Below are positions 8,100 through 32,997 of a stretch of DNA of 37,347 nt, piece by piece; position 1 is the stretch's first letter; every line of letters begins with the position of its first letter. Both the position numbers and the translations under genes were made by a program. Source of the DNA: a virus (Duplodnaviria > Caudoviricetes); IMG/VR virus record IMGVR_UViG_3300037502_001141, positions 1 to 37,347 of that record; one strand, given 5' to 3'. The notes below the pieces were generated by a model. It ran no database searches and was not told where the DNA came from. It saw nothing but the letters and a program-made list of their open reading frames with translations.

Positions 8100-8116
8100 C
8101 ATCTTGTCAGAGTGTC
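8090..8116. promoter_or_regulatory. 27-bp palindromic motif, site E
   Basis: GAC-AAC-CTGAC-ATCTT-GTCAG-AGT-GTC, spanning the stop codon at 8097-8099. Confidence 0.75.
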
Positions 8117-8150
8117 GCAATCAAATCATTTAAATCAAGAGGAAATTATT

Positions 8151-9212
8151 ATGGAAATTCGTATGACATCAGAAGTATCTCTAGCAGAAGCCGAAGAATC
8201 TATCATTGCTTTTGGTAACGAGAATGCGGTGCATTTGGTAGGTGAGCCTGGAGTTGGTAAGACCGCGATGTTCGAGCGTATCGTAGAGCGCACCGGCTAC
8301 AAGGGTGTGTACATGGATGTGCCGAATCTAGAGTTGGGCGAGATCGGCATACCGATGCCGAACCATGAGACTAAGACAACGAGCCTGTATCCCAACGACG
8401 CGTGGGGGTTCCACAAGTCTGAGCCTATGGTGATCTTCTTAGACGAGTTTACTAAACCATCTAGCCAAGCGGTGCAGAATACTTTGCATCCTTTGCTCAA
8501 CGAGAGGCGGATCGCTAACTTCAAACTGCATCCCGATACCATCGTGATAACGGCGGGTAACAACTCAAGCGACGGGGTGGGCGATAACCTGAAAGCACAC
8601 TCACTAAACCGCATTACTGTGATGCCGGTGCGCAAGCCGACTGCAGAGGAATGGTTGGAGTGGGGTAGTCAGGGTGGGATTGCTCCCGAGATGTTGGCGT
8701 GGGTCAAGGCTTATCCGCATGCTATGGCATCCTACCTAGATCCATCACAGGCTGACAATCCATACATCTTCAATCCTAAGTTCCCGAAACGGTCATTCTT
8801 CTCGCCACGCTCAGGGCATCGTGCGTCAAACATCATCAAGAAACGCGACAAGATTTCCAAGAACGCATTGATTGTTGGCTTGGTTGGCACGATTGGTGAA
8901 TCTGCAGCAAGGGATCTAACCGCGTATGTTGATGTTGCTGATAGTCTACCAACATGGGAACAAGTGATGAACGATCCTGCCAATGCACAAGTGCCGACTT
9001 CTCCTGCTGCCCTATGCATCATGGCTTACGGCGCAATTCAACGGGTTGACCGAGCCAACATCAGCAAGTGGTTTACTTACTTGAAGCGCACGCCGACTGA
9101 GTTGCAGAGTGTGTTCTGCTTGTCTGCTACTAAACACAACGAGAAGAAGCAAGTGCTTATGACGAGTGGCGCATTTGTCGATTGGATGCGTGAGCATCAG
9201 TACTTGTTCTAA
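8151..9212 (+). CDS. AAA+ ATPase (MoxR/dynein-related type)
   Basis: Walker A GEPGVGKT, Walker B IFLDE, sensor TAGN, arginine finger LNR, SPR; start at ATG 8151 after ATCAAGAGGA. Confidence 0.9.
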   Translation: MEIRMTSEVSLAEAEESIIAFGNENAVHLVGEPGVGKTAMFERIVERTGYKGVYMDVPNLELGEIGIPMPNHETKTTSLYPNDAWGFHKSEPMVIFLDEFTKPSSQAVQNTLHPLLNERRIANFKLHPDTIVITAGNNSSDGVGDNLKAHSLNRITVMPVRKPTAEEWLEWGSQGGIAPEMLAWVKAYPHAMASYLDPSQADNPYIFNPKFPKRSFFSPRSGHRASNIIKKRDKISKNALIVGLVGTIGESAARDLTAYVDVADSLPTWEQVMNDPANAQVPTSPAALCIMAYGAIQRVDRANISKWFTYLKRTPTELQSVFCLSATKHNEKKQVLMTSGAFVDWMREHQYLF

Positions 9213-9214
9213 TT

Positions 9215-9409
9215 ATGGCTATCGAGTATGTGCTATATCGTGGAGATGTGTGGGCTTTGCACAGGCAAGATCACTTTGGTGACGACACTATGTGGCTTGT
9301 GAGCGCAATCAATACCGACGCAATACATAATTGTTGGGTTTATGCTAGAGACTGCACACTTCTCGATCCCGCATTAAATGTTTTATTTGAAAGGAAGAAA
9401 AATGGTTGA
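9215..9409 (+). CDS. Hypothetical protein
   Basis: 64 aa; fills the gap in the operon. Confidence 0.6.
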   Translation: MAIEYVLYRGDVWALHRQDHFGDDTMWLVSAINTDAIHNCWVYARDCTLLDPALNVLFERKKNG

Positions 9410-9578
9410 AATTACTACGCTGTTTGCAACGCTATCGATGTTCTTAGCGTGGCGTCTGTATGTTGTTAGCAAGAGGTTTGACATGGCAGAAACTATGCTA
9501 CGAGGAATCGTATCAGGAAGAGTTGTAATAACCCGCACCGAAGATGGTGTAGAAATGGAGTTGAAAGATAATGGCTAA
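9402..9578 (+). CDS. Small protein with N-terminal hydrophobic helix
   Basis: MVEITTLFATLSMFLAWRLYVV...; AAGGA RBS. Confidence 0.65.
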   Translation: MVEITTLFATLSMFLAWRLYVVSKRFDMAETMLRGIVSGRVVITRTEDGVEMELKDNG

Positions 9579-10836
9579 ACTAACTGCAGAGCAACGCATT
9601 GAGCGCACTCATGTGCAATTGATGCGGGAGAAAAACTTCTGCCTATTCTCAGGCGTGTTTATGATTGGCAAGGTAACCATCTCTGACAAGGTGGCTACTG
9701 CGCGCACAGATGGGCGCAATGTCGAGTATGGTCGTGCATTTGTGGATAGGATAAACGACAAACAGTTGGCTTTCCTAGTAACCCACGAAGCCATGCACAA
9801 AGCATATCGGCACATGATGGTTTGGAAGAACCTTGCCAAAGAGAACGCACGCTTGGCAAACATGGCGATGGACTATGTGATTAACTTACAGATCCAAGAC
9901 TATGACCCACAACGCATTACAGTCGAGATGCCTCAAGACGAGTTGGGTAATCCTCTTGGTCTTATCGACGAGAAGTATCGTGGTATGGATACCATGCAAG
10001 TCTACCAAATGCTTAAGAAAGAATGTGGTGATGGTAAAGGTAGAGGTGATGGTAAAGGTAGAGGTGATGGTAAAGGTAAAGGTGGTGGACAACCTGACAA
10101 TTCGTCAGATGGTCAAGGTGGTGACTCCCAAGAGTTTGACGAGCATGATTGGGAAGGCGCATCTGATATGTCTGAAGAAGAAGAGCAAGAACTTGGTAAA
10201 GAGATTGACCATGCCTTGCGTGAGGGTGCGATCCTCGCCGGTAAGATGAAAGGCAATGTGCCAAGAGGTATCGAAGAACTACTGCATCCCAAGGTAGATT
10301 GGAAAGAAGCCCTGCGTGATTTTGTAAAAGCGCATACCAAAGGCTTGGATGAATCGACATGGCGCAGACCAAATCGTAGGTATCTTGGTGTAGACATCAT
10401 CATGCCATCAACGATTGGGTTCAAAGCCGAGCGCATATCTATCGGGACTGACACATCGGGTTCGATTGGTGGAGAGATCCTTGGTAGGTTTCTAGGCGAA
10501 GCAAAACTTATCTGCGACGATGTTGAGCCTGAGATCATCGACATGATGTATTGGGACACTCATGTGGCACGACACGAGATCTATGCGGGTTCGGAAGTCA
10601 GCAACTTTGTCAACTCAACTAAACCTGCGGGGGGTGGTGGAACAGACCCAGACTGTGTTCCCCGTTTCCTATTAAAGAAGGGAATCAAACCACAATGCAT
10701 CGTGATGTTGACTGACGGGGTGTTCTTTGGTCACGAGACTACGAAGTGGGAAGAACTTGGTGTGCCTGTGTTGTGGTGTGTAGTAGGCAACAATGAGTTT
10801 AAGCCCAAGGTCGGGCAAGCCGTTTGTGTTGAATAA
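9571..10836 (+). CDS. HExxH metallopeptidase-like plus vWA domain protein (DUF2201-like)
   Basis: ARTDG, THEAMH, NMAMDYVIN; Gly/acidic linker; MIDAS DTSGS, GGGGT, MLTDG. Confidence 0.9.
   Translation: MAKLTAEQRIERTHVQLMREKNFCLFSGVFMIGKVTISDKVATARTDGRNVEYGRAFVDRINDKQLAFLVTHEAMHKAYRHMMVWKNLAKENARLANMAMDYVINLQIQDYDPQRITVEMPQDELGNPLGLIDEKYRGMDTMQVYQMLKKECGDGKGRGDGKGRGDGKGKGGGQPDNSSDGQGGDSQEFDEHDWEGASDMSEEEEQELGKEIDHALREGAILAGKMKGNVPRGIEELLHPKVDWKEALRDFVKAHTKGLDESTWRRPNRRYLGVDIIMPSTIGFKAERISIGTDTSGSIGGEILGRFLGEAKLICDDVEPEIIDMMYWDTHVARHEIYAGSEVSNFVNSTKPAGGGGTDPDCVPRFLLKKGIKPQCIVMLTDGVFFGHETTKWEELGVPVLWCVVGNNEFKPKVGQAVCVE
10027..10080 (+). repeat. 3 x 18-bp in-frame tandem repeat (GDGKGR)
   Basis: GGTGATGGTAAAGGTAGA x2 plus GGTGATGGTAAAGGTAAA. 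Confidence 0.95.
10088..10114. promoter_or_regulatory. 27-bp palindromic motif, site F (intragenic)
   Basis: GAC-AAC-CTGAC-AATTC-GTCAG-ATG-GTC. Confidence 0.75.
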
Positions 10837-24551: not shown

Positions 24552-24647
24552 CTGACAGTGCCTCCTCGCTGTCGGTGCCTATGGCACTCCTCTTGGTGGT
24601 TGAACTCCTTCAACCTTGCACCCCCGCCCAGCGCGGGGGTCTTTTTT
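24552..24647 (+). ncRNA. Candidate multi-hairpin sRNA with three anti-Shine-Dalgarno CUCCU motifs
   Basis: Hairpins at 24552-24575, 24575-24587, 24598-24615 and terminator 24620-24647; CCUCCUC, CUCCUCUUGGU and CUCC lie in loops or linker. Confidence 0.65.
24620..24647 (+). terminator. Intrinsic terminator at the strand convergence
   Basis: ACCCCCGC-CCAGC-GCGGGGGT-C-TTTTTT. Confidence 0.9.
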
Positions 24648-27600
24648 ACTCTCTACCGTATTCCAACATTGGGGAAACCCGTGGGCGTAGTTTCTTCTGA
24701 ATCTGCGCACCAAATACTTCGGCTTCCATTTGGTTCTGTCCCCGACGTTTGAAGGAGTCAATTACATCTTTTGGTTCGACTGCGTATTCTGGGTACTTTT
24801 GGTTAAACTTTTGAATGTTTTCAATGGTGTCTGCGTAGGCATCGGTATTGCCGCGCTCCATCCATAGTCTGTTCATTAGAGTATTACGTTTGTCAATTAC
24901 CTTTTGCTCGTAGGTCTTAGCCTCAATGGCTGCTTTCTGTTTTTGGGCAAGGCGTTCAGGCTGCAGTCCAACTGCTTGTATTGCAAGTTCCCAAGCCGAG
25001 AAGTTATCTACTAGCGTAATGCCAGACTTAGTTTTAGCCCCCTCATCAGCCATACGATATGCAGCGGCTGGTTTAGCCACAATTGCCGGAGCGGCTTTCT
25101 CAAATGCACGCTGATACTGCCCCTGCTCCATCAACTCAATAGCCTCAGCCCAATTTACCCCTAACCCAACCACAGGGCCAGCGTTGGCAATTACACTTTC
25201 CACCACATTCTCTCGGGTATCGGTGGAGAACCGAGGGTCACGCAACCATAAATTTACGGGGTCAAGGCTGACACGCTCACTTAGTGAGCCACCAGTTGCA
25301 ACTGAAGCCGGGCCACGGACAACTGCCTCCATAGTTCCACGGCCAGCCTTACGGGCAGTCTCTTCGCCCATACCCATCTTCTTGTATATGTCGGCTACAT
25401 AACCACCAAGTTCGACTTCCATGTAGTTCTTAAACCAGTTATCCCAGTCAAAGAACTCATCGTCATCATCATTAGCCGCTAATTTAACTATGTTACCAAT
25501 TAACAAAGTAAAAAACGGTAAAGCCTCTGCACCGCCAAGCAAGAATGTCACACCTAAAATACCAGCCAACCGACGACGCCCTTCTTTGTAAGTCTCTCGG
25601 CGCTGAGCATCGGCTTCGGCAATCCGCTGGTCTATGATGTTCTGCGGAATCTTGTCTTCGATCATCTGCCGCCGAAACTCTTTTATCTCAGCTTTACGGA
25701 ATGGGGCGGCAAGAGTAAAGTAAAAGTTACGGGCTACGACGTAAGTAGCTAACACAGAGTATTGTTTAAATTTAGTCAACACCGAAAGCAGCGGAGGCGT
25801 AAAGTACCGTGGCTTCATCTGACGAGTAAAGTCACCCAAAGACAGGCCAGCAATATCTTTAGCTTCCGTAATTGCTAACTCAAAGGCTTCGTCTGGTGTA
25901 TTTGGTATTGGGTTACCTGCATTATCACGCTGGATAACGCCACGTAAATTTTTCTTAGGTTCATTTAAGAACTTGTCGTAGGCTAACTCAAACACAGACA
26001 GTAGCGTTACTTCGCGGTTTAGCCTTTCAGACTGATGAAACAATGCAGCAATAGTCCGTTTTACTGTGTTGTACCGCCCTGTATAAAGCTCTGATGGTCG
26101 ACCACCAATGTCCATAATGTCATTGGTCTGCGAGATATTGATATCGTTATCTTCAATAAATCGGTCTGCCGCTCGTTGCATCAATGGGTCTAAGTTGCCG
26201 CCTTCTACAATCGACGGGAACTCCATCTGCATAATTTGTCCTTTAAACGCCGGACTAATTGTACGTTTCGGCATTGTGGCTGTGTACCGACCAAGATTTT
26301 TAAGCATTACAGCATTTGCTTTAGCATATCCATATCGGCCACCAATATAAGGCATTGTGATCGCAGCCATACCTAAAAGGTTTAGCATAGCCGAGAACGG
26401 CGCAGACAGCATAAAATAAAACGTAGCATCTGATAGTTTGCCTGCTACTACCGCAGACATGCTGGTATCTTCGTTGCTTAGAATTGTCGGCGTGCGCTTC
26501 TCTACTTCCTTGATGTAATCGTCGTAGACATCCGAGTTAGGTAAATTTTTGACGTATTCCTTGGCATTAATTAAGTTATTAATAAATCTTTCTGAATATT
26601 TAAACCGCGACTGTTGATAAGCAGTATGTACAGCCGTAGTAGCAAAAACACGGATCATATCTTCACTAGCACCTTGAATTGACTGCCGGTTGATAAACAT
26701 TTTCCGAACACTTTGCTGGGGGAGCAAAATATAAATTAACTGATTAAGACTTTCTTTAAGTTCTTTCTTTGTATTTTCTACAGCAAATACTTTTTCTACT
26801 TCTTCTTGGGTTGGGATTTGGCCCATTTGTTTAGTTAGAGCTTTTTCAATTTCTTGATACTCTTTTTGAGTAGGTTTAGTTATGGCGCCTACAGAGTCTA
26901 TAATATCTTGAACGTCTTTAAGAACTTGAGTCGAACTAGCATTTTGATTGTATAGCTCTGAGATGCCGTTACCTTTGCGCATGGTTTCGGCTAAGTTTTG
27001 CTGCTGTGCGTTGCCATTTGATAGCTGTCTTTTACGCTTACGAAACGCTAACTCTCTACCCAATACAGTTTCAAACTCATAGAACTCTTTAAAGTTGCCT
27101 TTGCCGACTTGGAACCAATAGTTACCAAAACGACGTAGGGGGAAGTAAGGTGCGACTAACTTATCACGACCAAACTTATCATTGATTTCTTTAATAACCT
27201 TTTGACGCTCGGCTTTGGGCAACTGCAACGCACGCTTCTTCATCTCCGAAACCATTGTATTAATGGAGTCGGCGTAAAAATCTCTTACACGGCGATAAAT
27301 AGTTTTAAACTCAGGATTTAGTCCATCCCAAGCTGCTTGCATCGCTGGGTTTAAAGAACCTGCTTGTGCTGTATCTGGATCAATCCCTCGGATAGTAGAC
27401 TCCAACATAATTCGACCCATGAGCCGAGACTGCTTCGGATAACGTGCTTGCAAGCGAGTCCATTCGGCCAAGATGTCTTTAGCCTTGGTCATTGTGCGGT
27501 TCCGATCAGCAATCATCTGCTCAATAATTCGGATAGCACCGCTAATCTGAGGGAATTTGGTTTTAGTTAAGTCATCAATTTGACGTAAGTTAGCAAAGCC

Positions 27601-30600
27601 GAGAATAGACCGACGGAATATAGTATTGCCTGCATCCCACATTGGCGCAAGAATATCAGAACGTAATTTATCCCATGTTTCGTGCCCTTTAATAGCACTT
27701 TCAATTTCACCAACAAGTTTTACTGCGACTTGTTCTGCAGAACGCCATGTTGTTGAAATTGGCCCCTGAATACGTTTACCTTTTGGGGCGAATCGAGCAC
27801 CTGCTGCTGTAGGAGTACGGGTGCGCACTGCCGAGAACAACTGTGTGGCCGTAGCCATAGCGTTGCTAGCAAGGTTATCTATGCCGACCATTTGGTAAAT
27901 TGCACGGACTAGGCGTGTAAAGAACGGCATCTTAACCGGTTTGTACATTATCTTTCTAAGCCGGTCTTGAAATGACTTATTAGTAAAGACCTCAGACACA
28001 AACTCGTGGATATCAGTTAGACCATACAAGTCCAACGGAATATTAGCGACTGCATACTTATACATCTTTTGGAGTTCTTCACGAGCAGCACGCTGCCCTT
28101 CCGTAAGCGTAGTAACGTCGGCGTTAAGAATAGCCTCAGTAGCCGCGTGCAGCACTTCGTGCAAGAAAACGTCGTTTGTAGAGTTATCAAGGTCTATCGT
28201 AATAGCATCAAATGCCGGGTAGTAAGCACCGGCAACCTCCAACCCACGGATGTTGTCTTCAAAGGCTTTGTTAACATCGGTAAATTCTGCAATTACCGGC
28301 TGCATGTTATAGCGAGGAGAGCGTAGTTCTTTTATACCTCTATAGACTTTTTCAAGGTTTTCATCCCGGTCATAGTTTTCAAAATATTTGTTATACAAAT
28401 CCGGGTAGGTAAGCTGAACGTAATTAAACATTCGCTTCTGTTGATGATGTGTTTTTAAGTCAATCTGGCGACGGGTTAAGTCTCGAGCGCTGTTGAAGCT
28501 AATCGTAGTTGGTAGGTCTAACGCTGCTAGTTTTGCGGCTAGTTCTTTGTATAGCGGATTAGTAAGCCGAGTTGAAAGCACTTCGAGAGCACGCTTTAAA
28601 TTGCCTTTGGCTATCTCATCGGCAACTGCAGGGGCAATATTTCGGGGCTTAGCAAGTCGATTTATTACTTGGTCTTCGATGCTTCCCGGCGTAGTTTGCC
28701 CAGAAAATCTGGCACGCTCGCGCTCTTCTGCAAGATCTGCAAGGCTGCGTTCAGTTCCTCCAGATACTCCGAGTTCGCCTGTTGCTGTTCCCCCAAATCT
28801 CTCCACGCTGTCAGCACGGCGTTCATCTCGTTTTTCGTAGGAGCCAGAGTCTTGGAAGCGCTTTCCACGAGGTTTAGCGTTTGCATTTTTATTTACCTCT
28901 CGAATAAATTCAAAAATATCTTTGTTATCGCGGTAAGTTTTAAACAACCGCTGACGAATATCGTTTAGAGTGGTATCGCCTGTAAGAGCTTCACCTTCCA
29001 TTAGATACAAAATTCGCTGCATTTCAGCAGGGAAATCGGCGTTGTGGCTACGCACTTTATGGTGGGCTAACTCATGCACCATCGTACCTAAGATACCTGC
29101 TGCAGCAAATCGTGGTTCAGCGGATTCAGTTACAGCCGGGTTTACATACGAGCCGCTAAAAGGCAATCGAATGCTTACGCCTCGATATTCTGTGTCAAAA
29201 CTTATGCCGATAGCTTCGTTGCGAAGCTCGTTATATCCCGTAAGATCAACGACATAAGATCTAAGTTTTTGGAACTCATCACCAATTTCATATATAAACT
29301 TATCAAAACGCTGACCAAACTTGTTTCGGGCCATTTCAACTAAAGATGAGCCTTTAACATTTTCTATTTTGCGTTCAACTTCGGCTCTCTTAGATTTCCA
29401 TTCAGCATCGGTAAGTTTATTAGCGTACCAATCCTCCCGAATGTCATTTAATTCGCTTTTAAGTTCTTTAACTTTTTCTTGATCTGGAATTTCTACGTTG
29501 TCATGCAACATGACACGTTTAGCATCAACGTTGGCTTGATCAATCTTAAATTCGTCAAGGTTAATTCTAGAATTCTTAAGATCATCTTGAGACAGTTCAG
29601 GGATAACCCGGCCTTTAACAATTAAGCGGCCTTCTTTAACCTCAATGACATCGCCTTCAGAAATGTCAGAAGCAACTTTTACAATGCCAGCATCGCCTTT
29701 AGGCGCAAGTTCTTCTGGTGCAGTTGCTTTAATAGTCCCTCTGTCGTCATACAGATACTGTATTGACCCAAAGTTTTTAGCATCATTTCCTAAATCGACA
29801 GCCCCATAAACTAAGTTTAAATAACTAGTTAACTGTTCAAACCCTTTTTCCGTCGTTGGCGAAAACCGTTGCCGGTTTAAATCAAATGGATAATTAAAAT
29901 CTTCTGGTTTTACGTTTTTATTAGGAGATACGTCAAGATAAAAATTTCTAGGTACTGTTTTAGAATCAAAGCCCGCACCTACTGCAATCCTCCCGTCAAA
30001 CTGCCACAACCCATTAGATAGTATGTGTAAGTTATCACTAGGTACATACCGTTGAGGGCTTTTTTCAACATAAATTCTTGCAGTACCCCAATCAAACTTA
30101 ACATCAGCAAATTGGGTATAGCTATCGTATGGAAATTCATTACCTATGCGCACAGTACTATTGTTGAATGTAACAGAAATATCCGCAAACAACGGACTTT
30201 TTGTTAAAACTTCATAATCAAATTGGCTATCAGGGATTTTAATTTGCTTAGTCTCCCCTGTATCTGAATCTATATAAGACTCAGGTACGCCTACTTCAGC
30301 ATAAGTACCATGCCCATCTGGGAAAAGTTCAAGATATTGGAGGGGGATGTCATTACCTTTATACACCCGAATGTCTGGCTGCATGGATGGGTCATCCATT
30401 GCATCTTCTAGTTCAACCCCAGTGCTTTCTAAAACACTTAGCACATCATCACGCAGAGTAACAACTTTTATGCGTTTGTTACCAAACAAAAATTGCATTT
30501 TGGCAATACCAAGACCACCAGAAGCCCGGGTGCTTTCTTTTTCCGTCCCTGCAACAGTTAGAAATGTAGTTGACAAAGTCTTAGGAGACATGCCAGTTCC

Positions 30601-32997
30601 ATTATCTAATACTGAAATGATACGAGTAGCTGAATCTACATTTATATTAATAGCGCCTTCTTTAAGCTGCCCTTTTTCCTGCAGTGTTTTAATGGCATCA
30701 AATGAATTTTGAACCATTTCTTTAACCGACACAGTCGGCATTTTGTCAGGATTACCATACAACTTTTGCCCAAAAAGTTTATTCATGCGGCGTTTGTTGT
30801 AGTCTGGTTTAGCCTTGATGGTTTCCCCAGACGGGCGTAAGTCAGCGGGCTTTGAAGTAGCCGCTAGTTCATCAAGTAGGGCTTCGCCTTCAGGCGACAA
30901 TGAGTTATTTGATAGGGCTAGACCAGAATCTCTGAGTGCCTTTAAGGCTTGAAACTTAACCGCACCGACCTTGCCAGCACGAAGTTTGGTAGCTGCATCT
31001 AAAAACTGTGCGTCATTCATTCCTCTTGGCAACGCAGTCGGTGCCGCTTTCGGTATATCTTTGCCTTTAAAACCAGCCCGAATCTCATCTTCAATCTGCT
31101 TAATTTTGTCAGCACGCTGCTCCATTGGTACCGCAGCAATTTCAGATTGACGAGCGGCTACGCCTTTGTTTACGGCTAATTGTTCATTTAGTTTGTTAAC
31201 CCGTGCTTGTACGGTGGGGTCTTCAACAGCGGCTAAAGCATCCGCAATAATCTTGTCTACCGAGTCGATCTCCCCTTGAACTTGCTTTAGGGCCGAATCT
31301 ACCTTGGCTTGAGAACCTCGTTTGTTACCCGCAGTTAAATCTTTAGATGCGTTAACAAGCCGCGCCGCCGAACCAGCAGCGGAAGGATAATTAAGCAACG
31401 CACCTAGAGGGGTTGGTAATTGAACCCCTAACCCCATCATGTCTTCACCAGACGGAATGTTTAGTCGTGTAGCGACGTCGGCGTAGGCATCTTTTGCTTT
31501 TTGTATTGACGCATCAAGAGAATTTAATGACTGCGTTACCGGATTTGCCGGATCTGTCATTAAGGCGTTGTAGTGAATGTTTGCCTGTTTTTGCTGCGGG
31601 CTTACTGTGTCACTTGGTTGAAATAAGGTTTCTAATGCACTTGGCTTAGCCGTTGCTCCAACTCCAACCCCACCAGCAGGAACCCCAAAAACTTCCACTC
31701 CTCCGGCTCCAGTTTCAGTAGGCTGCTCGGTAACTCCTGCTCCGACACCTGTTTCGTCAGGTACCTGAAGGCTAGGCTCAATTCTTCCGGCGGCATCCGC
31801 TGTAGCAACTCTTCCTTCCAGTTCTCGTTCTCCATAAGCTTTCACCAATTGGTCGAGTTCTTCATCAGTGGCATCACGCCCGTACATCTGTTTAAAACCA
31901 GTAGCAAATGCTGCTTTGATTTCGGGAGTAACTGCTTCAGGTTCTGCAGGCTCTTCAAGCTTTGCGTCTAACCCGGCAATAAGTCGTTCTTCAGGGGTTT
32001 GTAGCCCAGCAAATTTTTCCGCACCTTTTTGCATGGCTTTACCAACAATAACATTACCGCCAGTGCCAACAACAGTTGCAATAAAAGTTTGCGCTGCAGC
32101 AGAAGGGCGGTCTGCTAAATAACTAGAGAACGGTTTTTCAGGGTTTAATACAGCCCATTCGTTTAAGTCTTGCAGTATGGTCGCAAGTTGCTCTCCGGGT
32201 ATTTCTTTCTTTAACTGATTAAGCAGCATCCGACCAAAGCCGGTCTTTTGGTTAATGTCATTGAGCAAACTGCCAAGAGGCATCTTTTCAGTAGCAACTT
32301 CAATAACACCTTGAGATGCGGCAAAGGGTAACGCTTGCTCAGGTCTTAAACCTTTTTCTCTAGCCTCTTGATATGCCTGACCACCAGTAAGCCCACCGAA
32401 CGCCGTAAGCACAGCAGCCTGACCACCGGGAAGCATTGCAGCGGGCAATAAGGCTAGGTTTTGCCCAAAACTTTCAAGGCCGGATTCGACACCACTAAGT
32501 ATTAGTCCTTGGTCGGCAGGAGGTTTTATCTTCCTAGCCTCTGACTCACGAGCCTGCTTTGCCATAAATTCAGCGGCTTGAGCAGCAGGGTCTTTTTCTC
32601 CAATAGTGCCAGTAAGCGCCTGATAAAACCTACCCTGTGGGGTCTTTTGGTATACATCACTTGCTTGTTCAGATAATGCACGGAACGCCCCAGCCGCCCC
32701 AATGTTCATGCTTTCGGGGACATTTTTAACCACGCGCCCTAAAAAGTCAGTGATCGAGTTTGTTGATGTAGTGGGGGAAGGCGCAACTTCTTCAGGAGTA
32801 GCCGGGGCTACCGGTGCTTCTTCTACCTTTGGCGCAGGCGCAGTCGGCGCAGCGGGGGCAACACCCAGTCCGATACGCCCTGCAAAATCCTCAAACGGTA
32901 AATCAGAGTAAAACTTTTTGTGAAATCCTATTGCTAAGTCTTGGTCTGATAAGTCATTGTATTGAGGATATTGTTTGCGAAGTTCTTGAATATTCAT
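24646..32997 (-). CDS. Giant internal virion/ejection protein of polyvalent type (GHKL ATPase, two HExxH domains, PLxRFG domain)
   Basis: 2783 aa; EMVQNSFDA (~aa 760), DNGTGM, GGLGIA; HELAHH (~1308); HEVLH...EFVSE (~1613); YFPLRRFG (~1953); last gene of the structural operon. Confidence 0.85.
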   Translation of the reverse strand: MNIQELRKQYPQYNDLSDQDLAIGFHKKFYSDLPFEDFAGRIGLGVAPAAPTAPAPKVEEAPVAPATPEEVAPSPTTSTNSITDFLGRVVKNVPESMNIGAAGAFRALSEQASDVYQKTPQGRFYQALTGTIGEKDPAAQAAEFMAKQARESEARKIKPPADQGLILSGVESGLESFGQNLALLPAAMLPGGQAAVLTAFGGLTGGQAYQEAREKGLRPEQALPFAASQGVIEVATEKMPLGSLLNDINQKTGFGRMLLNQLKKEIPGEQLATILQDLNEWAVLNPEKPFSSYLADRPSAAAQTFIATVVGTGGNVIVGKAMQKGAEKFAGLQTPEERLIAGLDAKLEEPAEPEAVTPEIKAAFATGFKQMYGRDATDEELDQLVKAYGERELEGRVATADAAGRIEPSLQVPDETGVGAGVTEQPTETGAGGVEVFGVPAGGVGVGATAKPSALETLFQPSDTVSPQQKQANIHYNALMTDPANPVTQSLNSLDASIQKAKDAYADVATRLNIPSGEDMMGLGVQLPTPLGALLNYPSAAGSAARLVNASKDLTAGNKRGSQAKVDSALKQVQGEIDSVDKIIADALAAVEDPTVQARVNKLNEQLAVNKGVAARQSEIAAVPMEQRADKIKQIEDEIRAGFKGKDIPKAAPTALPRGMNDAQFLDAATKLRAGKVGAVKFQALKALRDSGLALSNNSLSPEGEALLDELAATSKPADLRPSGETIKAKPDYNKRRMNKLFGQKLYGNPDKMPTVSVKEMVQNSFDAIKTLQEKGQLKEGAININVDSATRIISVLDNGTGMSPKTLSTTFLTVAGTEKESTRASGGLGIAKMQFLFGNKRIKVVTLRDDVLSVLESTGVELEDAMDDPSMQPDIRVYKGNDIPLQYLELFPDGHGTYAEVGVPESYIDSDTGETKQIKIPDSQFDYEVLTKSPLFADISVTFNNSTVRIGNEFPYDSYTQFADVKFDWGTARIYVEKSPQRYVPSDNLHILSNGLWQFDGRIAVGAGFDSKTVPRNFYLDVSPNKNVKPEDFNYPFDLNRQRFSPTTEKGFEQLTSYLNLVYGAVDLGNDAKNFGSIQYLYDDRGTIKATAPEELAPKGDAGIVKVASDISEGDVIEVKEGRLIVKGRVIPELSQDDLKNSRINLDEFKIDQANVDAKRVMLHDNVEIPDQEKVKELKSELNDIREDWYANKLTDAEWKSKRAEVERKIENVKGSSLVEMARNKFGQRFDKFIYEIGDEFQKLRSYVVDLTGYNELRNEAIGISFDTEYRGVSIRLPFSGSYVNPAVTESAEPRFAAAGILGTMVHELAHHKVRSHNADFPAEMQRILYLMEGEALTGDTTLNDIRQRLFKTYRDNKDIFEFIREVNKNANAKPRGKRFQDSGSYEKRDERRADSVERFGGTATGELGVSGGTERSLADLAEERERARFSGQTTPGSIEDQVINRLAKPRNIAPAVADEIAKGNLKRALEVLSTRLTNPLYKELAAKLAALDLPTTISFNSARDLTRRQIDLKTHHQQKRMFNYVQLTYPDLYNKYFENYDRDENLEKVYRGIKELRSPRYNMQPVIAEFTDVNKAFEDNIRGLEVAGAYYPAFDAITIDLDNSTNDVFLHEVLHAATEAILNADVTTLTEGQRAAREELQKMYKYAVANIPLDLYGLTDIHEFVSEVFTNKSFQDRLRKIMYKPVKMPFFTRLVRAIYQMVGIDNLASNAMATATQLFSAVRTRTPTAAGARFAPKGKRIQGPISTTWRSAEQVAVKLVGEIESAIKGHETWDKLRSDILAPMWDAGNTIFRRSILGFANLRQIDDLTKTKFPQISGAIRIIEQMIADRNRTMTKAKDILAEWTRLQARYPKQSRLMGRIMLESTIRGIDPDTAQAGSLNPAMQAAWDGLNPEFKTIYRRVRDFYADSINTMVSEMKKRALQLPKAERQKVIKEINDKFGRDKLVAPYFPLRRFGNYWFQVGKGNFKEFYEFETVLGRELAFRKRKRQLSNGNAQQQNLAETMRKGNGISELYNQNASSTQVLKDVQDIIDSVGAITKPTQKEYQEIEKALTKQMGQIPTQEEVEKVFAVENTKKELKESLNQLIYILLPQQSVRKMFINRQSIQGASEDMIRVFATTAVHTAYQQSRFKYSERFINNLINAKEYVKNLPNSDVYDDYIKEVEKRTPTILSNEDTSMSAVVAGKLSDATFYFMLSAPFSAMLNLLGMAAITMPYIGGRYGYAKANAVMLKNLGRYTATMPKRTISPAFKGQIMQMEFPSIVEGGNLDPLMQRAADRFIEDNDINISQTNDIMDIGGRPSELYTGRYNTVKRTIAALFHQSERLNREVTLLSVFELAYDKFLNEPKKNLRGVIQRDNAGNPIPNTPDEAFELAITEAKDIAGLSLGDFTRQMKPRYFTPPLLSVLTKFKQYSVLATYVVARNFYFTLAAPFRKAEIKEFRRQMIEDKIPQNIIDQRIAEADAQRRETYKEGRRRLAGILGVTFLLGGAEALPFFTLLIGNIVKLAANDDDDEFFDWDNWFKNYMEVELGGYVADIYKKMGMGEETARKAGRGTMEAVVRGPASVATGGSLSERVSLDPVNLWLRDPRFSTDTRENVVESVIANAGPVVGLGVNWAEAIELMEQGQYQRAFEKAAPAIVAKPAAAYRMADEGAKTKSGITLVDNFSAWELAIQAVGLQPERLAQKQKAAIEAKTYEQKVIDKRNTLMNRLWMERGNTDAYADTIENIQKFNQKYPEYAVEPKDVIDSFKRRGQNQMEAEVFGAQIQKKLRPRVSPMLEYGRE
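28665..28886 (-). CDS. Nested +1-frame ORF (73 aa) inside the giant gene
   Basis: AGAGGT-AAATAAAA-ATG; amphipathic helical sequence; main frame is linker-like here. Confidence 0.55.
   Translation of the reverse strand: MQTLNLVESASKTLAPTKNEMNAVLTAWRDLGEQQQANSEYLEELNAALQILQKSASVPDFLGKLRREASKTK
31632..31835 (-). CDS. Nested +1-frame ORF (67 aa) inside the giant gene
   Basis: GGTG-AAAGCTT-ATG; helical Leu/Glu-rich sequence; main frame is a G/V/T/A-rich linker here. Confidence 0.45.
   Translation of the reverse strand: MENENWKEELLQRMPPEELSLAFRYLTKQVSEQELPSSLLKLEPEEWKFLGFLLVGLELEQRLSQVH

Follow-up and report, generated by a model that had tools for sequence, protein, structure and literature searches.

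A conserved small gene in the +1 frame of a phage polyvalent-protein gene encodes a predicted inhibitor of the adjacent GHKL ATPase–metalloprotease cassette

A GHKL ATPase–metalloprotease cassette within a giant phage polyvalent protein is directly followed by a second gene, contained entirely in the +1 frame of the same DNA, whose 73-aa product we interpret as a separately translated cognate inhibitor of the injected, ATP-driven protease, probably captured by hosts as a defense. This reading is assigned a probability of roughly 0.6. The window (the whole stretch of DNA analyzed, 37,347 nucleotides) is a linear 37-kb virus record that is 59% complete. The original prediction proposed an effector with a cognate partner, either an inhibitor or a chaperone, and this pairing is supported by the state of the +1 frame in homologues, the selection acting on it, its linkage to the cassette and a predicted complex. 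The features discussed below are as follows.

24646..32997, minus strand: host gene, encoding a 2783-aa PLxRFG/LPD39 phage polyvalent protein
28897..30816, minus strand: mobile cassette (host aa 728-1367), with a GHKL ATPase and transducer, a small beta region and a metalloprotease
28969..29523, minus strand: Wss1/WLM-like zincin domain, with HELAHH at 29076-29059; predicted binding site of the nested gene 1 product
28895..28900, minus strand: Shine-Dalgarno (SD)-like site AGAGGT, 8 nt before the nested ATG
28665..28886, minus strand: nested gene 1, located in the +1 frame of the host gene and encoding a 73-aa protein with a predicted four-helix fold; ATG at 28886
31632..31835, minus strand: nested gene 2, a 67-aa +1-frame ORF over another linker (host aa ~388-455)

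The host gene and its nested +1 frame

The host gene matches NCBIfam PLxRFG (NF032893, E = 2e-89), LPD39 and HATPase_c_3, with NF032893 and LPD39 exceeding their cut-offs, and it contains a second HExxH motif (HEVLH, aa 1613). Matches to family libraries elsewhere in the window include a terminase, a family A DNA polymerase, a helicase, a primase and a DNA-ejection protein, the last being a PHROG match two genes upstream of the host gene. The host protein is probably a virion ejection protein; its packaging and injection are suggested by these neighboring genes and by passages of the survey of polyvalent proteins by Iyer et al. (2017, PMC5512222). The early region (window 8112-10836, plus strand) carries a gene for a MoxR-like AAA ATPase followed by one for a DUF2201 metallopeptidase-vWA protein. 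DNA near-identical to the window was found mostly in freshwater, riverine and subsurface metagenomes. Contigs from three DNA runs join across window positions 28818-29011, with a short side of just 20 letters, possibly reflecting a recombinant relative or noise.

The start signals of nested gene 1 are exactly those noted originally: AGAGGT, an 8-nt spacer (AAATAAAA, positions 28894-28887), ATG and a 73-aa +1-frame ORF. Its placement downstream of HELAHH also stood: the ATG lies 57 codons after the end of the motif (63 after its first His), where about 55 had been noted. The ORF occupies the longest stop-free +1 run of the host gene (75 codons), in which 153 +1 stops are distributed over 2783 codons. 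The product was described as having amphipathic helices; the peptides quoted are present, and the protein was modeled as a four-helix bundle with a pLDDT of 84. The main frame was described as a charged, disordered-looking linker over the same span; across 66 homologues, L makes up 3% of its residues over codons 70-125 after HE, with G at 19%, S at 11%, E at 10% and R at 9%, whereas the +1 frame is 15% L and 12% A.

Those homologues were obtained with a profile of the HExxH region, which recovered 77 viral loci; removal of exact duplicates and addition of the window left 66 distinct loci, which are related to each other and are not independent events. Across codons 70-125 after HE, the +1 frame was open in 66 of 66 loci, the window included, against a mean background of ~8% measured on 62-codon windows elsewhere in the same genes, a figure that is slightly low for a span of 56 codons and that rises to 29% in GC-rich hosts. 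An SD-like site followed by ATG or GTG was found at the expected place in 60 of 66 loci, as opposed to 829 of 7395 random windows (11%). One locus (L064, on the same contig as L015) has neither ATG nor GTG at the usual place, and an ATA located 8 nt after GGAGG may serve as its start. Identity in the HExxH region falls as low as 25-35% among the loci, whose +1 products align as one family with two subgroups.

Frame-specific selection, which had been suggested as a check, follows the +1 frame. Of 1035 pairs drawn from 46 aligned loci, 871 showed better conservation of the +1 protein than of the main frame and 63 a tie, in an alignment built on the +1 protein; higher +1 identity was also evident in gap-free pairs with the window (e.g., 0.81 vs. 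0.67 and 0.53 vs. 0.33). The third codon position of the main frame is the least variable in the overlap and the most variable in the upstream control around HExxH, so codon periodicity is inverted relative to the control. The possibility that the open frame arises by chance from the composition of a G/E/R-rich linker draws on the scarcity of stops in the +1 frames of GC-rich hosts, reflected in the background of up to 29%. That explanation is nearly untenable in view of the 66 open frames, the homologous products retained at 25-35% cassette identity, the inverted periodicity and the occurrence of copies in other proteins, and the nested ORF is almost certainly a real conserved gene. Neither frame has good codon usage; that of the main frame is slightly better (the nested frame was better in 22 of 66 loci), and it does not point to the nested frame as the older of the two.

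An internal SD can stimulate frameshifting, and programmed frameshifting might instead give access to the +1 frame, yielding a shortened polyprotein with the helical domain at its end. The +1 frame is indeed open well upstream of the ATG in several GC-rich loci, and the SD-like site could act as the stimulator. This route is very improbable, since in the window and in closely related loci a +1 stop precedes the start by 1-3 codons, and most loci have the ATG or GTG 6-10 nt downstream of the SD, at the spacing of initiation. No promoter or terminator signal near the nested start exceeded shuffled sequences; two promoter-like sites were found near the gene, both on the opposite strand, compared with 1.8 expected. 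Transcript coverage of the region came from low-depth contigs of a single RNA run, which carry no information on the frame used.

Similarity searches gave the nested protein no family name in Pfam or PHROGs. Matches to PADLOC JetD (E = 0.001, weak) and NCBIfam gshA (E = 0.097) were taken as chance. The best match of its model in a viral structure library had an E value of only 0.24, a comparison that is uninformative for a small helical bundle, and a PDB fold search gave a best Z of 7.3, with no structure at or above 8; a ribonuclease-inhibitor entry (1tfk_B, Z 6.3) was counted as no evidence. A word-indexed search with the single nested protein as query returned no match. A search for longer forms was empty, though another search shows that such forms exist. 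In metagenomes, the protein was occasionally picked up by gene callers, with 8 matches in one search and 88 in another; five of the 88 (P0047, P0052, P0062, P0078 and P0082) are repeat proteins with no or marginal match to a larger profile and were dropped.

The cassette, its linkage to nested gene 1 and the predicted complex

The cassette (host aa 728-1367) was modeled with a pLDDT of 88. Its first ~350 residues form a GHKL ATPase with a transducer, whose nearest folds are Hsp90/GRP94, ParE, MORC and TopoVI-B (GRP94: Z 20.1, rmsd 3.9, 300 aligned residues), and HATPase_c_3 scores above its cut-off. The hallmarks of GHKL proteins are all present: the Bergerat fold, the N-box Glu/Asn, the G1 Asp and the transducer domain. 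Residues E33, N37, D71 and R315, the last of which would be the transducer arginine, as in Hsp90, are invariant in 46 of 46 sequences. Cassette residues 432-616 resemble Wss1 (5xbn; Z 8.7, rmsd 3.3, 116 aligned), and H581, E582, H585 and H591, comprising HExxH and a third His in a minimal zincin fold, are likewise invariant in 46 of 46. The C-terminal domain matches Pfam WLM with E = 3e-4 and 21.4 bits, under the gathering cut-off of 26; the protease is Wss1-like by fold and falls below the score for filing as a WLM member. Because the catalytic residues are invariant, both the ATPase and the protease activities are probably intact, as far as sequence can indicate, and the cassette would constitute an ATP-gated clamp joined to a Wss1-like protease. 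It had no match among 50,697 cultured phage records, and an Atlas search returned only HATPase clusters without a name.

The relationship between cassette and nested gene was evident in a search with the PLxRFG region, conducted independently of the cassette, which gave 48 loci from 42 distinct hosts, some of them contigs of the HExxH set. Nested gene 1 was present in 20 of 20 cassette-bearing relatives and in 0 of 22 lacking the cassette, 16 of which extend across the cassette position; this agrees with the cognate partner proposed originally. Searches with the nested family found 15 loci: seven were contigs already in the set, and eight were new and all lay in such polyproteins. The HExxH domain lies just upstream in seven of the new loci, and the eighth starts inside the tail of the domain. 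Two near-identical sister polyproteins (L188:1793-1864 and L189:6001-6072) lack the cassette and retain only the last ~24 nested codons, with no start, a remnant that looks like a deletion scar at the module boundary.

The cassette enzyme is not always paired, because four stand-alone cassette genes (L105:5603-7444, L106:1-1557, L191 and L195) have an intact HExxH and no nested gene. Stand-alone cassettes were found in 3 of 300 small bacterial genomes, all of one class, with one further drawn genome left unscored. They sit among housekeeping genes and were probably acquired from phage; both of those with a visible start have a long N-terminal extension, and the proteins may be exported. No nested homologue was present elsewhere in two incomplete genomes that carry them. 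The stand-alone genes end 68-72 codons after HE, at about the start of the nested gene. These ends mark the natural end of the cassette and therefore hint that an operon of enzyme plus inhibitor was read through into the polyprotein, for which codon usage gives no confirmation.

A complex of the nested protein with the whole 640-aa cassette was predicted at the HExxH domain with an ipSAE of 0.73 (0.73-0.75 in three runs), whereas the best of three controls scored 0.00, in keeping with the partnership proposed originally. Of solved complexes, 116 of 157 reach the ipSAE mark used, as do 2 of 215 mismatched pairs; this calibration applies only approximately here, as the complex was modeled from custom paired alignments. 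The runs share at least 93% of contacts, with a partner pLDDT of at least 83. The protease domain (543-546, 562-581 and 591-621) accounts for every listed contact and the ATPase for none. Helix 2 of the nested protein runs along the catalytic, zinc-ligand helix, with W28 and L31 placed against H581, G577 and T578; E582 and H585 are absent from the listed contacts, which come from a contact list and not from coordinates. In zincins, the residues corresponding to H581, G577 and T578 line the substrate pocket. Since W28 and L31 contact these residues, the model suggests inhibition, in which the nested protein would occlude the protease cleft. Interface positions are barely more conserved than others (mean entropy 2.30 vs. 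2.42).

The nested gene could also be a real gene that hitchhikes with the cassette and performs an unrelated job, the predicted complex then being a false pass. Physical linkage alone would give co-occurrence, and false passes did arise in 2 of 215 mismatched pairs. Nested gene 2 supplies a precedent, as a small linker gene without a link to the cassette. It represents a separate conserved family, whose product usually ends in His or Gln, and PLxRFG proteins may have it whether or not they contain the cassette. Of the 66 cassette loci, 39 include it, as do 34 of the 42 PLxRFG relatives; the other eight relatives are 5'-truncated or short. An Atlas search with nested gene 2 gave no match, and its product possibly partners the N-terminal region of the host protein. 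Hitchhiking is nonetheless improbable for nested gene 1, given that all three runs converged on one confident interface with the adjacent catalytic domain while controls scored 0.00, and that no cassette-free polyprotein keeps an intact copy. Taken over the three readings in which it binds, the nested protein is likely a direct partner of the protease domain.

Copies outside polyproteins and the proposed mechanism

Relatives of the nested protein also occur outside polyproteins. Membrane segments, called by a simple hydropathy rule, were predicted in nine proteins shorter than 300 aa (P0017, P0025, P0029, P0039, P0042, P0049, P0053, P0060 and P0071) and in P0094, which combines the nested domain and membrane segments with a T5orf172 domain. 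P0074 has two nested domains, one of each subgroup (53 and 41 bits). The membrane, T5orf172 and doubled copies are candidate inhibitors or sensors acting outside the polyprotein. A further cluster of 32 members belongs to the YkuD (L,D-transpeptidase) family. Among the 15 members listed (P0080 and P0098-P0111), 12 have the complete 67-residue domain inserted in frame behind residue 21, another is a fragment that includes the end of the domain, and two have an empty site.

The YkuD insert and the nested gene of one phage locus (L186:6001-6204) share 87% identity; one allele starts like the protein of that locus, and another resembles that of a second (L187:6001-6216). Across the 12 alleles, the predicted-interface half of the insert varies at 23 of 37 positions, compared with 4 of 30 for the remaining half and 6 of 141 for the YkuD part. 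The variation is regional and not interface-specific, as 17 of 25 interface positions vary compared with 6 of 12 neighboring ones. The YkuD part had no match in viral contigs, and its best matches in a plasmid collection were proteobacterial (51-53%), so that the protein carrying the insert is apparently non-viral; two phage-labeled 254-kb records match it at 47%, and a viral home for the fusions is therefore possible. Four freshwater runs searched with the L186 nested gene did not yield the YkuD junction. As read from the proteins and not from surrounding DNA, the inserts would represent repeated capture of the phage inhibitor by hosts.

Self-inhibition is the mechanism that best accommodates these observations. 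Ribosomes would initiate internally on the late mRNA, and the inhibitor would be made alongside the polyprotein and keep the protease off in the producing cell. Once injected into the next host, with the small protein left behind or released, the ATP-driven protease would become active and cut host proteins, perhaps DNA-bound defense proteins by analogy with Wss1. Placement of the inhibitor in the +1 frame of the linker would allow enzyme and inhibitor to move between polyproteins as one in-frame block. Capture by non-viral genes would then account for the in-frame inserts, the membrane-anchored fusions and the tandem pair, in which the inhibitor likely serves to disarm or sense the incoming protease. 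A more extended version is offered tentatively, at somewhat less than even odds: freshwater phages inject a GHKL/Wss1-like protease with a hidden +1 antidote, and hosts repeatedly steal the antidote, swap its binding half and graft it into housekeeping or membrane proteins to track phage variants.

Two other roles for a binding partner were weighed against self-inhibition. The nested protein may bind the protease as a chaperone, activator or substrate adaptor, for example in folding or processing of the polyprotein before packaging. Such a role predicts the same co-occurrence and complex, and autoproteolytic processing by polyvalent-protein metallopeptidases has been proposed in the part of PMC5512222 consulted. 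It is nevertheless doubtful: the contacts center on the zinc-ligand helix, an activator would be of little use to non-viral genes with diversified copies, and stand-alone cassettes persist without the nested protein. Alternatively, the inhibitor might mainly target the protease of a competing or superinfecting phage and not the phage's own new polyprotein, a use to which the copies outside polyproteins would be suited, including P0074 with one domain per subfamily and the allelic series. We regard this as unlikely, because the gene lies within a virion gene, has no surplus of promoter-like sites around it, and is lost together with the phage's own cassette. Inhibition of the phage's own protease thus remains the preferred reading.

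Relation to known systems and significance

In searches of the open literature, no description was found of a GHKL/Wss1-like cassette paired with a nested partner. In effector-immunity and type II toxin-antitoxin pairs, such as colicins and polymorphic toxins with their immunity proteins, a small partner is encoded next to the enzyme. The nested pair is similar in having a small helical partner directly downstream of the enzyme and predicted at its catalytic site, in moving as a two-part module, and in the orphan and tandem partner copies found elsewhere. It differs in that the partner lies wholly out of frame inside the enzyme's own reading frame, that the enzyme is a domain internal to a virion protein, and that both toxicity and neutralization are here putative. 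The pair would work like an effector-immunity pair and is built like an embedded gene. Among embedded genes, lambda Rz1 lies within Rz. Passages of PMC8227390 describe phiX174 E embedded in D, together with 11 viral overlaps whose products interact. As in Rz1/Rz and E/D, nested gene 1 is a small gene with its own start in a shifted frame, contained entirely inside another; the examples in the material covered are lysis genes or eukaryotic-virus pairs, whereas nested gene 1 would encode the regulator of an enzyme domain in a mobile cassette.

The two parts of the cassette share their folds with Wss1/WLM metalloproteases and with GHKL clamps (Hsp90, MORC and TopoVI-B). According to passages of a preprint (bioRxiv 10.64898/2026.09.30.754977), a GHKL ATPase is likewise combined with a Wss1-like fold in the anti-phage protein Tiamat, but there the fold lacks HExxH; the cassette has an invariant HExxH, is carried by phage and comes with a small dedicated partner. 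The host protein resembles the polyvalent proteins treated in the main text of PMC5512222 in being a giant multi-domain late-gene product, presumed to be packaged and injected, that combines LPD39/PLxRFG with HExxH. The zincin MPTase peptidases of such proteins were proposed there to process themselves or attack host proteins (Iyer et al. 2017, PMC5512222). They have Glu as the third zinc ligand in the passages covered, whereas the cassette domain has an invariant third His, like Wss1/WLM. That main text contained no match for GHKL, Hsp90 or overlap, and its passages held no embedded partner gene.

In the arrangement described here, a giant virion protein would hold both a harmful enzyme and the means of controlling it in a single in-frame block, and standard annotation misses the nested gene because it is fully embedded. 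This host gene has two such genes, and disordered linkers in polyvalent proteins may thus often provide room to encode small partners. The analysis names a testable function for an uncharacterized injected enzyme, the GHKL clamp with its Wss1-like protease, and with a probable inhibitor in hand the enzyme should become clonable and its host target findable. Should the YkuD and membrane fusions prove to be cellular, they would represent anti-phage defense derived from a captured phage inhibitor, and the allele series would permit direct tests of specificity.
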